A DNA stretch of 64,000 nt from assembly GCF_029227855.1 (NCBI RefSeq), contig NZ_CP074356.1. The stretch is one strand, 5' to 3'. A program made the translations under genes and the position numbers. The DNA is from Escherichia coli. GTDB lineage: Bacteria > Pseudomonadota > Gammaproteobacteria > Enterobacterales > Enterobacteriaceae. Under the pieces are notes generated by a model that did no database searches, was not told the DNA's origin, and saw only the letters and a program-made list of their open reading frames with translations. Shown here one piece after another: positions 40,552 through 42,710 of the stretch (its first letter is position 1; each line of letters opens with the position of its first letter).

Positions 40552-41358
40552 ATGAAAGCATTCTGGCGTAACGCCGCGTTGCTCGCGGTTTCTCTGCTTC
40601 CCTTCTCTTCTGCCAACGCCGTGGCGTTGCAGGCAAAACAGTATGGCGATTTTGATCGCTATGTCCTGGCCCTCTCCTGGCAAACCGGATTTTGCCAGAG
40701 TCAACACGATCGAAATCGTAACGAACGAGATGAATGTCGCCTGCAAACCGAAACGACCAACAAAGCTGATTTTCTGACCGTACATGGTCTATGGCCAGGA
40801 TTGCCTAAATCGGTTGCTGCCCGTGGTGTTGATGAACGCCGCTGGATGCGCTTCGGTTGCGCTACTCGCCCAATCCCGAATCTACCAGAAGCGCGCGCCA
40901 GCCGAATGTGTTCATCGCCGGAAACCGGGTTATCGCTGGAAACGGCCGCTAAACTAAGTGAAGTCATGCCAGGAGCTGGCGGACGTTCCTGCCTGGAACG
41001 CTACGAATATGCCAAACACGGTGCCTGCTTTGGTTTTGATCCAGACGCATACTTCGGCACGATGGTACGCCTGAATCAAGAAGTTAAAGAGAGCGAAGCC
41101 GGAAAATTCCTTGCGGATAACTACGGTAACACAGTGAGCCGCCGTGACTTTGATGCCGCCTTTGCCAAAAGCTGGGGAAAAGAGAACGTGAAAGCAGTTA
41201 AGCTAACGTGCCAGGGTAACCCTGCGTATTTGACTGAAATTCAGATCTCGATCAAAGCTGACGCCATCAACGCTCCGCTTTCTGCCAACTCATTCTTGCC
41301 ACAACCACACCCAGGCAACTGTGGCAAAACCTTTGTGATTGATAAAGCAGGTTATTAA
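40552..41358 (+). CDS. rna: Periplasmic ribonuclease I (RNase T2 family)
   Basis: 268 aa from MKAFWRNAALLAVSLLPFSSANA (signal peptide); conserved His-containing motif TVHGLWPG. Confidence 0.93.
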   Translation: MKAFWRNAALLAVSLLPFSSANAVALQAKQYGDFDRYVLALSWQTGFCQSQHDRNRNERDECRLQTETTNKADFLTVHGLWPGLPKSVAARGVDERRWMRFGCATRPIPNLPEARASRMCSSPETGLSLETAAKLSEVMPGAGGRSCLERYEYAKHGACFGFDPDAYFGTMVRLNQEVKESEAGKFLADNYGNTVSRRDFDAAFAKSWGKENVKAVKLTCQGNPAYLTEIQISIKADAINAPLSANSFLPQPHPGNCGKTFVIDKAGY

Positions 41359-41504
41359 TCCTCTGATTTACAAAACACGCTAATTCGTCTTCCATAAACC
41401 ATGACGATTAAGATTTATACATAATGCGCTACATTGAGGAATTCCCTGAATGTGACGCAAATCACTTCAAAGAGTGAGCAACAGTCAGTATCATCATGTG
41501 AGTT

Positions 41505-41537
41505 AAACCCTCGCCGCCTGACGGTGAGGGTTTTCTT
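41505..41537 (+). terminator. Probable native rna terminator just upstream of the IS200 left end
   Basis: aaaccctcgccg-cctga-cggtgagggttt followed by tcttg. Confidence 0.55.
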
Positions 41538-42246
41538 GTGCACAGAAAACCCCCAGCTAGGCTGGGGGTTCCGGAAAGCTTTCAGCTTTGAGCCTGTTAT
41601 TAAAACCCCTTTTGATTTGTTAAAACACCTTGCGGTCTGGCAACTGCAAGTGTCAAACAAGAAATCAAAAGGGGGTCCCAATGGGGAACGAAAAGAGCTT
41701 AGCGCACACCCGATGGAACTGTAAATATCACATAGTTTTTGCGCCAAAATACCGAAGACAGGTGTTCTACAGAGAGAAGCGTAGAGCAATAGGCAGTATT
41801 TTGAGAAAGCTGTGTGAGTGGAAAAGCGTACGGATTCTGGAAGCTGAATGCTGTGCAGATCATATCCATATGCTTGTGGAGATCCCGCCTAAAATGAGCG
41901 TATCCGGGTTTATGGGATATCTGAAAGGGAAAAGCAGTCTGATGCTTTACGAGCAGTTTGGTGATTTGAAATTCAAATACAGGAACAGGGAGTTCTGGTG
42001 CAGAGGGTACTACGTCGATACAGTGGGTAAGAACACGGCGAAGATACAGGATTACACAAAGCACCAGCTTGAAGAGGATAAAATGGGAGAGCAGTTATCG
42101 ATTCCCTATCCGGGCAGCCCGTTTACGGGCCGTAAGTAACGAAGTTGGATGCAAATGTCAGATCGTGTGCGCCTGTTAGGGCGCGGCTGGTAAGAGAGCC
42201 TTATAGGCGCATTTGAAAAACCTCCGGCTATGCCGGAGGATATTTA
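41538..42246 (+). mobile_element. IS200-family insertion sequence (IS200/IS605 family), boundaries approximate
   Basis: Single Y1 HUH transposase ORF with left-end hairpin (41549..41569), 69-nt stem sequestering the tnpA RBS (41606..41674) and right-end hairpin (42221..42239); about 709 bp, no terminal inverted repeats. Confidence 0.6.
41681..42139 (+). CDS. tnpA: IS200 transposase TnpA (HUH single-strand transposase)
   Basis: 152 aa; HuH motif (DHIHMLV) and C-terminal Tyr region; aaaggggg RBS. Confidence 0.93.
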   Translation: MGNEKSLAHTRWNCKYHIVFAPKYRRQVFYREKRRAIGSILRKLCEWKSVRILEAECCADHIHMLVEIPPKMSVSGFMGYLKGKSSLMLYEQFGDLKFKYRNREFWCRGYYVDTVGKNTAKIQDYTKHQLEEDKMGEQLSIPYPGSPFTGRK

Positions 42247-42299
42247 TTTTTGGGTATGTTTATCTGCGACACTCGCAGTACCGACGACATGGAGTAAAA

Positions 42300-42710
42300 A
42301 TGTCCAGACCAACTATCATCATTAACGACCTGGATGCCGAACGCATCGATATTCTGCTGGAGCAACCCGCCTATGCTGGTTTGCCAATCGCCGACGCGTT
42401 AAACGCAGAGTTGGATCGCGCCCAAATGTGTTCGCCAGAAGAGATGCCACACGACGTGGTGACAATGAACAGCCGGGTTAAATTCCGCAATCTTAGCGAT
42501 GGCGAAGTGCGTGTGCGCACGCTGGTGTATCCGGCAAAAATGACCGACAGCAATACTCAGCTTTCCGTTATGGCTCCGGTAGGTGCCGCACTGCTGGGGC
42601 TGCGCGTTGGCGATTCCATTCACTGGGAACTTCCGGGCGGCGTTGCAACCCACCTTGAAGTGCTGGAACTCGAATACCAGCCAGAAGCTGCTGGCGACTA
42701 CCTGCTTTAA
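42300..42710 (+). CDS. rnk: Regulator of nucleoside diphosphate kinase Rnk (GreA/GreB-like)
   Basis: 136 aa from [12 protein letters not shown]; ggag RBS. Confidence 0.93.

Follow-up and report, generated by a model that had tools for sequence, protein, structure and literature searches.

IS200C of Escherichia coli and IS200 of Salmonella enterica are the same element, ∼710 bp long, with tnpA alone, a left-end terminator hairpin, a stem over the tnpA Shine-Dalgarno (SD) sequence, and the STnc490/art200 region. The left-end hairpin of IS200 in Salmonella works as a terminator in both directions and halts ∼85% of impinging transcripts (PMC5435999). The stem-loop in the IS200 5' untranslated region (UTR) lowers translation ∼20-fold, and the antisense small RNA art200 together with Hfq further represses tnpA (PMC4513863, PMC5435999). 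The copy described here differs from this known element only in its location, the rnk leader (1 of 5,426 genomes), and in a private substitution, I126T, in its transposase; its host holds 24 copies versus a median of 1.

Two further systems bear on the comparison. IS1541 of Yersinia pestis and Yersinia pseudotuberculosis is 86.6% identical to IS200C at the DNA level and shares both its end hairpins and its habit of following a hairpin and T-run. It differs in its host, in the higher copy number reached there, and in its first bases (GTGCCCAG versus GTGCACAG in IS200C). IS608 of Helicobacter pylori and ISDra2 of Deinococcus encode a homologous TnpA and, like IS200C, have subterminal hairpins, lack inverted repeats and target duplication, and integrate on the 3' side of a short sequence also found ahead of the left end. 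Unlike IS200C, however, they carry tnpB, and their targets are the plain sequences TTAC and TTGAT, whereas IS200C targets the T-rich tail after a hairpin. To our knowledge, no hairpin requirement is known for the targets of IS608 or ISDra2. Loci in Pluralibacter, Brenneria, and Mailhella gave 53 to 59% identity, but over stretches that did not align as full-length copies, so that no meaning attaches to these values.

The sequence entered by the element also has a described counterpart. For the rnk leader, Naville and Gautheret predicted an attenuator that includes an antiterminator, in a region that coimmunoprecipitates with Hfq (PMC2965389), and RIL-seq placed "5'rnk" among the Hfq-associated RNAs (PMC11979758). 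At the locus studied here, the left flank of the element belongs to this leader family (RF01771), which it matches over the full length and with a high score, and lies upstream of rnk. It departs from the known arrangement in that 712 bp of insertion sequence (IS) lie between leader and rnk, and the U-tract UUUUCUUUUGGG has become UUUUCUUGUGCA. We consider it very likely that a copy of IS200C has recently entered the T-tract of the rnk leader terminator, a site typical of the element; the copy probably separates rnk from its own promoter and is probably polar on rnk.

The IS200C copy between rna and rnk

The window analyzed here is a stretch of 64,000 nucleotides of E. coli DNA. Positions 41300 to 42400 were 100% identical to E. 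coli JNEC-KY178 (NZ_AP045174.1), in which the gene order is citT-rna-tnpA-rnk-yldA-uspG-ahpF and RefSeq labels tnpA, the sole annotated gene of the element, as "IS200/IS605-like element IS200C family transposase." The insertion at 41538-42248 can be identified by its sequence as full-length IS200C, a known insertion sequence of the IS200/IS605 family (IS200 group). The element is already catalogued and of largely known behavior, and the RefSeq annotation preexists. The best genome matches to the element were 99.7 to 100% identical, and RefSeq calls these copies IS200C. Compared with 16 other E. coli IS200C copies, the rna-rnk copy differed at 2 to 13 of 711 positions; with this and the 100% identity to NZ_AP045174.1, chance cannot account for the features described. 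Six positions differed from the consensus of these 16 copies, one of them giving rise to I126T. A preliminary description of this DNA had called a complete IS200-type unit between rna and rnk, and the transposase, both end hairpins, and the stem that hides the SD sequence were all found.

Comparison among copies and with empty alleles defined the ends of the element. The conserved core, GTGCACAG...ATATTTATT, spans 711 bp on the plus strand (41538-42248) and is common to all copies compared; GTGCACAGAAAACCCCC...GGAGGATATTTATT is found in all 18 independent E. coli copies, whose flanks differ beyond it. Of the span proposed earlier, 41538-42246, the left end is exact and the right end falls 2 to 3 nt short, since the core stops at 42248. 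Similarly, the distance from the element to the rnk ATG (at 42300) is 51 nt instead of the ∼54 bp first given. Aligned to UID2404240032, whose flanks are identical, and to K-12 MG1655, the net insertion is 712 bp; the empty allele reads ...GAGGGTTTTCTT^TTGGGTATG... and is also given as ...GAGGGTTTTCTT^TTGGGTATGTTT.... The extra T behind 712 versus 711 bp is ambiguous in placement and may belong to the left end (41537) or the right end (42249). Filled and empty alleles were paired at seven loci, and at six of the seven the net insertion was 711 to 712 bp without a direct repeat: 712 bp where a T follows ...TATT (rna-rnk, gnd-ugd, galU-hns, and fabF-pabC) and 711 bp where a base other than T follows (yccU-hspQ and ydcH-rimL). 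The seventh pair, carB-caiF versus K-12, gave a net value of 710 bp, probably reflecting a difference in T-run length between the strains, and was left out of use. No target duplication was detected at rna-rnk or in the other filled/empty pairs compared, and an inverted-repeat search of the element returned no terminal inverted repeats pairing its two termini.

The tnpA gene (41681-42139, plus strand) encodes a Y1 HUH transposase of 152 amino acids with H61/H63, Y125, and Q129. Its product matched Pfam Y1_Tnp (E = 1.1e-36) and the NCBIfam equivalog NF033573 (144 bits; cutoff, 55), and it aligned across the whole catalytic core with Y1 transposases of known structure (those of Sulfolobus, IS608, and ISDra2). 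In this alignment, H61-I-H63, Tyr125, and Gln129 stand opposite the HUH motif, catalytic Tyr, and Gln of IS608 TnpA (chain 2a6m). The three comparisons agree with the 152-amino-acid HUH transposase of the preliminary description, and the match is of the IS200/IS605 type. The 711-bp element contains a single long open reading frame (ORF) on the tnpA strand (41630-42139); with tnpA as its sole gene and neither tnpB nor iscB, it falls in the IS200 group rather than in the IS605 or IS1341 groups. In the TnpA of the rna-rnk copy, I126T lies directly after the catalytic Tyr125. Position 126 is Ile in the common IS200C TnpA and in all five solved homologues aligned, and outside this genome the I126T protein turned up on a single metagenome contig of 757 bp. 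Judging from this position, the substitution may leave the transposase of the rna-rnk copy impaired; ∼22 other IS200C copies in the genome could act in trans.

The first 163 nt of the element fold into three structures (−62.2 kcal/mol, z = −4.45). The left-end subterminal hairpin (41548-41570, plus strand), the presumed TnpA binding site, has a perfect 10-bp stem, AACCCCCAGC/GCTGGGGGTT, that was recovered by folding and by the inverted-repeat search. It is followed by a small hairpin identified by folding (41575-41589, plus strand), which lies within an Rfam match to STnc490, and by the 5' UTR stem-loop (41606-41674, plus strand), in which CCCCUUUUGAUUU is paired with AAAUCAAAAGGGG. Folding, the inverted-repeat search, and published work (PMC4513863) concur on this last structure, which sequesters the tnpA SD sequence: GGGGG at 41671-41675, 5 to 9 nt before the ATG, is buried in the stem. 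STnc490 (RF01405) encompasses the left-end hairpin, the small hairpin, and the 5' UTR stem-loop (41548-41671, plus strand) in the tnpA-sense direction, with a match over the full model (1-124) at 145.2 bits (gathering score, 56; E = 2.4e-31). Folding and this match reproduced both the left-end hairpin and the long stem hiding the tnpA ribosome binding site that had been noticed earlier. From homology (PMC4513863) and the conserved structure, we infer that art200 would be encoded opposite the STnc490 match, on the minus strand, where we place a putative feature at approximate coordinates 41600-41689.

Toward the other end of the element, the repeat search detected an interior inverted repeat, TGCGCCTGTTAGG/CCTTATAGGCGCA (42168-42211, plus strand). 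The right-end subterminal hairpin and its tail, ATATTTATT, occupy 42221-42248 on the plus strand, with the stem CCTCCGGC-tat-GCCGGAGG at 42221-42239; both the terminator scan and folding identified this structure. In the scan, the hairpin was terminator-like on both strands, in agreement with the earlier claim that, with the insertion, a terminator-like right end has been placed ahead of rnk. In a Vibrio copy, the two arms of the right-end stem have changed in a compensatory way (CCACCGGC/GCCGGTGG), in support of this stem.

Of 5,426 complete E. coli genomes, 2,063 carried near-full-length IS200C, at a median of 1 place per genome and a maximum of 35; JNEC-KY178 carries 24 copies. The insertion between rna and rnk occurred only in JNEC-KY178, and the other 5,425 genomes had the empty site, which bears out the claim that the insertion is strain specific. 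Alignment to K-12 had been set beforehand as a refutation test, and there the rna-rnk spacer is empty, 229 bp long and without a transposase. The accompanying remark that IS200 is missing from K-12 is correct for IS200 proper, although a family relative, IS609, is carried there. Within JNEC-KY178, a copy between ydcH and rimL is identical to the rna-rnk copy at 711 of 711 positions and has the same private I126T; at the ydcH terminator, other genomes contain IS200 variants with different flanks or different identity. On sequence comparison, the identical I126T sister copy and the rarity of the variant point to a recent move within the JNEC-KY178 lineage. This move may have been catalyzed in trans by other copies.

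The rnk leader, the insertion site, and rnk expression

The Rfam model of the rnk leader (RF01771) matched positions 41434-41542 (plus strand), upstream of rnk and on the same strand, over its full length (1-109) at 118.1 bits (gathering score, 50), and the same leader sequence is present in K-12. The element breaks the last bases of this predicted attenuator, known as the Hfq-bound 5'rnk RNA, at 41537/41538. The leader terminator hairpin, AAACCCTCGCCG-cctga-CGGTGAGGGTTT (41505-41533, plus strand), is intact despite the insertion and folds with a ΔG of −21.5 kcal/mol (z = −4.9). The target of insertion is the left part of the terminator T-tract, TTTTCTT (41531-41537, plus strand), as read from the empty allele, TTTTCTT^TTGGG; the native tract, TTTTCTTTTGGG, has become TTTTCTT, the element, and TTGGG. 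To the left of the element remain the hairpin and 7 nt of T-tract, and to the right remain 2 T residues and the rest of the rnk 5' UTR, with the element co-directional with rnk. The sequence and the empty-site alignment place the last 51 nt of this UTR, including the SD sequence (GGAG), at 42249-42299 (plus strand), cut off from the leader. The coding sequence of rnk, a GreA-family nucleoside diphosphate kinase regulator, is intact (42300-42710, plus strand; ORF and RefSeq). A quasi-palindrome over the left junction (GGGTTTTCTT-GTGCAC-AGAAAACCC) was considered as an antiterminator and rejected; both flanking hairpins dominate the predicted folds.

The preliminary description had seen a terminator-like hairpin downstream of rna and had located the element in the rnk promoter region. 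The hairpin is real, but it belongs to the terminator of the rnk leader (RF01771), and it may also end rna transcripts. RF01771 spans the left junction, so the element has landed in the T-tract, within the 5' leader of rnk, rather than in a promoter region, and every promoter candidate is upstream of the insertion. The promoter scan gave a sole sigma-70-like match, TTCAAA-17-TATCAT (41466-41494), which is upstream of the element but falls inside the Rfam leader, so that the leader RNA may begin elsewhere than the Rfam model does; a CATAAT sequence ahead of the leader (41420-41425) was noted by eye. No promoter match was returned by the scan for the 62 bp between the leader hairpin and the rnk ATG. 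This last result bears on a different reading of the locus, in which the hairpin is only the rna terminator and the rnk promoter, lying between hairpin and ATG, has been split or displaced by the element. The hairpin does lie 150 nt past the rna stop codon, where it could end rna transcripts too, and a weak −10-like TATGTT (42254-42259) was seen by eye just to the right of the element. However, in addition to the empty scan, the entire 41434-41542 segment matches the curated rnk leader (118 bits versus a gathering score of 50), and published work presents this leader as an antiterminator-containing attenuator (PMC2965389) and finds a 5'rnk RNA with Hfq (PMC11979758). We therefore regard promoter disruption as improbable and retain the reading in which the element interrupts the leader.

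From this position within the leader, the insertion is probably polar and probably lowers rnk expression. A transcript that starts at the rnk promoter and reads past the leader terminator would first meet the left-end terminator of IS200, then 459 nt of poorly translated tnpA, and last the terminator-like right end, followed at the rna-rnk site by TATTTATTTTT. Given these three barriers and the lack of an outward promoter, a polar insertion would be expected; the promoter scan returned neither an outward nor a hybrid promoter at the right end of the element. There are precedents for such an arrangement: IS200 was first found as a polar hisD mutation (PMC4513863), and in Yersinia a copy of IS1541 separates pheA from the pheL attenuator (PMC3082878). 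The opposite outcome, activation of rnk by read-out from the tnpA promoter or from a hybrid promoter at the right end, seems highly improbable. Outward or hybrid promoters do arise from some IS families, and tnpA and rnk point the same way, but the scan was without a match at the right end, the tnpA promoter of IS200 is intrinsically weak (PMC4513863), and the right end is a GC hairpin with TATTTATTTTT behind it here. The short 5'rnk leader RNA, by contrast with rnk itself, should still be made, as predicted from the leader hairpin and 7-nt U-tract that are kept.

Terminator T-tracts as targets of IS200C and its relatives

The position next to a hairpin had been treated as incidental in the preliminary description. 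It is instead the regular target of IS200C, observed at 18 of 18 independent E. coli sites. At each of these sites, a GC-rich hairpin (ΔG, −13 to −26 kcal/mol) precedes the left end, with a T-rich tail of 6 to 9 nt, ending in TT, between the stem and the junction, and the orientation is always the same. The sites lie behind gnd, fdnI, lom, wzzB, carB, plaP, guaA, galU, fabF, yccU, a kdsA-like gene, icd, and others, and the gene upstream of the element is almost always co-directional with tnpA.

The same arrangement was observed in other species. Using the 20-nt left-end hairpin as the query against one genome per species, we scanned for related loci and obtained at least 120; hosts among the matches listed included Y. 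pestis, Vibrio, Edwardsiella, Brenneria, Dickeya, Desulfovibrionaceae, Bacillota, and other metagenome-assembled genomes. Among the matches listed, 116 of 135 unique left flanks from other genomes (86%) were terminator-like by a fixed rule, versus 13 of 1,000 random positions of the same loci (1.3%) and 88 of 500 T-rich random positions (17.6%) judged by the same rule. The mean fold energy of the 40 nt upstream was −18.8 kcal/mol at IS sites versus −7.3 kcal/mol at random positions, and the left flank ended in TT at 111 of the 135 sites outside the E. coli set, again among the matches listed. In Y. pestis, the hairpin ended ≤10 nt from the element at 42 of 43 unique sites among the matches listed; where copies in these matches stand head to tail, the left end comes directly after the right-end hairpin and tail of the preceding copy. 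At the ydcH terminator, IS200 variants of 100%, 97.4%, and 96.4% identity were found in different strains. Thus, the seat of IS200-group elements is almost always a GC hairpin with a T-run in the same orientation.

This link between the IS200 group and terminators has been noted before and is not new. Odaert et al., in 1998 (J Bacteriol 180:178), reportedly found that 8 of 14 IS1541 sites had stem-loops resembling terminators, which they termed hot spots. More recently, a preprint described terminator-like sequences as enriched upstream of IS200/IS605 elements (10.1101/2025.07.22.666184). A search of the literature on the IS200 hot-spot wording gave no match.

A preference of this kind could arise without any mechanistic role for the terminator if insertion were random in T-rich DNA and only the harmless copies behind genes survived. 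Sites after a terminator are neutral and shield the element from read-through. Insertion within genes is also known, with an intragenic IS1541 in inv of Y. pestis counting in favor of such selection. The same can be said of the intragenic IS200 insertion hisD984 (PMC4513863). However, the junction lies in the T-tract 6 to 9 nt past the stem, in one orientation, at 18 of 18 E. coli sites, and among the matches listed a hairpin accompanies 86% of IS sites versus 17.6% of random T-rich positions, with 42 of 43 Y. pestis sites obeying the rule. Y. pestis, moreover, tolerates many gene-disrupting IS insertions, which counts against survival of harmless copies as the explanation. The rna-rnk insertion is very recent (1 of 5,426 genomes) yet obeys the rule, and the ydcH terminator has been occupied by variants of 100%, 97.4%, and 96.4% identity. 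Selection for harmless sites probably contributes part of the terminator association, but it cannot alone explain placement to the single nucleotide, a fixed orientation, and a rule-obeying insertion present in 1 of 5,426 genomes. Taking these points together, we find it unlikely that the terminator position is without mechanistic meaning.

Target recognition and significance

How the transposase might recognize such a target can be framed by homology to IS608 and ISDra2. On that basis, TnpA would excise one strand as a single-stranded circle ("peel and paste"), and the circle would insert 3' of a short sequence recognized by a guide beside a hairpin. In IS200C, an A-run lies 5' of both subterminal hairpins (CAGAAAA-CCCCC on the left and TTGAAAAA-CCTCC on the right), and by the same homology this A-run would serve as the guide, pairing with the T-rich cleavage site. 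The presumed sites of cleavage are rich in T, with TATT for the right end and TNTT-like sequences for the targets (TCTT, TTTT, TGTT, TATT, or AATT). With A-runs at both hairpins and T-rich cleavage sites, pairing between T-tract and A-run fits the logic of the family. The IS608/ISDra2 paradigm does not explain the target hairpin, however. A single-stranded intrinsic terminator would resemble the right end of the element itself, which is a hairpin followed by ATATTTATT. We tentatively propose that IS200-group transposases read terminators, such that a hairpin with a T-rich tail of 6 to 9 nt ending in TT would mimic the right end and the A-run guides would pair with the T-tract; we hold this to be a serious possibility, although one that we doubt slightly more than we believe. 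The head-to-tail copies of Y. pestis fit the idea of a right-end mimic, and we found no earlier proposal of this mechanism in the literature searched.

For JNEC-KY178 itself, the insertion is of little impact, being one more catalogued IS beside the nonessential rnk. IS200 is famous for almost never moving; the rna-rnk copy, with its identical sister in a genome of 24 copies, appears to be a clean and very recent natural transposition. It also offers a natural experiment in which the Hfq-bound 5'rnk leader RNA is separated from rnk. The copy also joins >150 other sites in demonstrating the strict landing of IS200-group elements in terminator T-tracts; for purposes of annotation, the hairpin just to the left of an IS200 is the host's and not the element's. 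The sole lead of wider value is the strict terminator targeting, together with the idea of a right-end mimic, which offers a testable model of target recognition. If this model is true, every terminator would be a programmed landing pad, attenuators included (pheL of Yersinia as well as the rnk leader studied here), and the model would explain the harmlessness of these elements, their transcriptional insulation, and the occasional uncoupling of a leader from its gene.

Insertion junctions and the rnk leader

At the left junction in the window, the first bases of the IS200C element are complementary to the 3' arm and T-tract of the terminator upstream of it (inverted-repeat pairs I3 and I5), and a quasi-palindrome, GGGTTTTCTT-GTGCAC-AGAAAACCC (41525-41555), spans the boundary. 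At the rna-rnk site, TTTTCT is exactly complementary to the AGAAAA lying 5' of the element's left-end hairpin. Net insertion length differed by one base according to the nucleotide following ...ATATTTATT: 712 bp where this base is T (the window and three other filled E. coli loci, L003, L015, and L016) versus 711 bp where it is not (L020, yccU-hspQ; L144, ydcH-rimL of strain JNEC-KY178). Because length tracks this base, these data suggest that the cleavage position slips by one nucleotide within T-runs.

The sole sigma-70-like match of the region, TTCAAA-17-TATCAT (41466-41494), coincides with two unpaired, strongly conserved blocks in the consensus of the Rfam rnk_leader family. Given this placement, some of the conservation attributed to the leader may reflect a promoter and not RNA structure.

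Orientation of insertion sites relative to replication

When sites were placed on K-12 coordinates, assuming oriC at about 3.93 Mb and a terminus at about 1.6 Mb, 10 of 11 E. coli insertion sites were found to follow genes co-oriented with replication; the exception was the rna-rnk site of the window. Where genes are co-oriented, the strand carrying the hairpin and T-tract is the lagging-strand template, an arrangement known for IS608 and ISDra2. With an assumed 55% of genes co-oriented with replication as the expectation, the binomial probability of the observed fraction is ∼0.014, a calculation that leaves out terminator strength.

Relatives of the element in other genomes

The IS200/IS605 family is present in K-12, as IS609 (insQ, a tnpB homologue, and the pseudogene yncK) occupies L150:18162-19909, corresponding to K-12 1,503,161-1,504,908; IS200 proper is absent there. 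The exact 20-nt IS200 left-end hairpin was also detected in MAGs labelled Saccharibacteria, Elusimicrobiaceae, Peptococcaceae, Bacillota, Oxalobacter, and Mailhella/Desulfovibrio (L023-L097), mostly at contig ends. Either the hairpin has spread horizontally over a very wide range of hosts, or the bins are contaminated. In Yersinia pestis NCTC5923, copies of the IS200 relative IS1541 lie head to tail (L099:350, L100:2661/3371, and L102:12605/13315), with a second left end directly after the ...GCCGGAGGATATTTA of the preceding copy's right end. Either the right end served as a target, or these are tandem dimers resembling circle junctions.

A TnpA variant and IS200C copy number

The window copy of tnpA encodes Thr at codon 126 (42056-42058), immediately C-terminal to the catalytic Tyr125, a position that is Ile in the common IS200C TnpA and in all five aligned solved homologues. 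This private I126T variant recurs at a second JNEC-KY178 locus, ydcH-rimL (L144:401-1111), with identical DNA (711/711), and is nearly missing from public collections, where it occurs in one 757-bp contig. Across its whole genome, JNEC-KY178 (NZ_AP045174.1) carries 24 IS200C places; among E. coli genomes with any match, the median is 1 and the maximum 35. Several further genomes among those listed have 19 to 33 places. Numbers in this range suggest that lineages exist in which the "dormant" IS200C has expanded.
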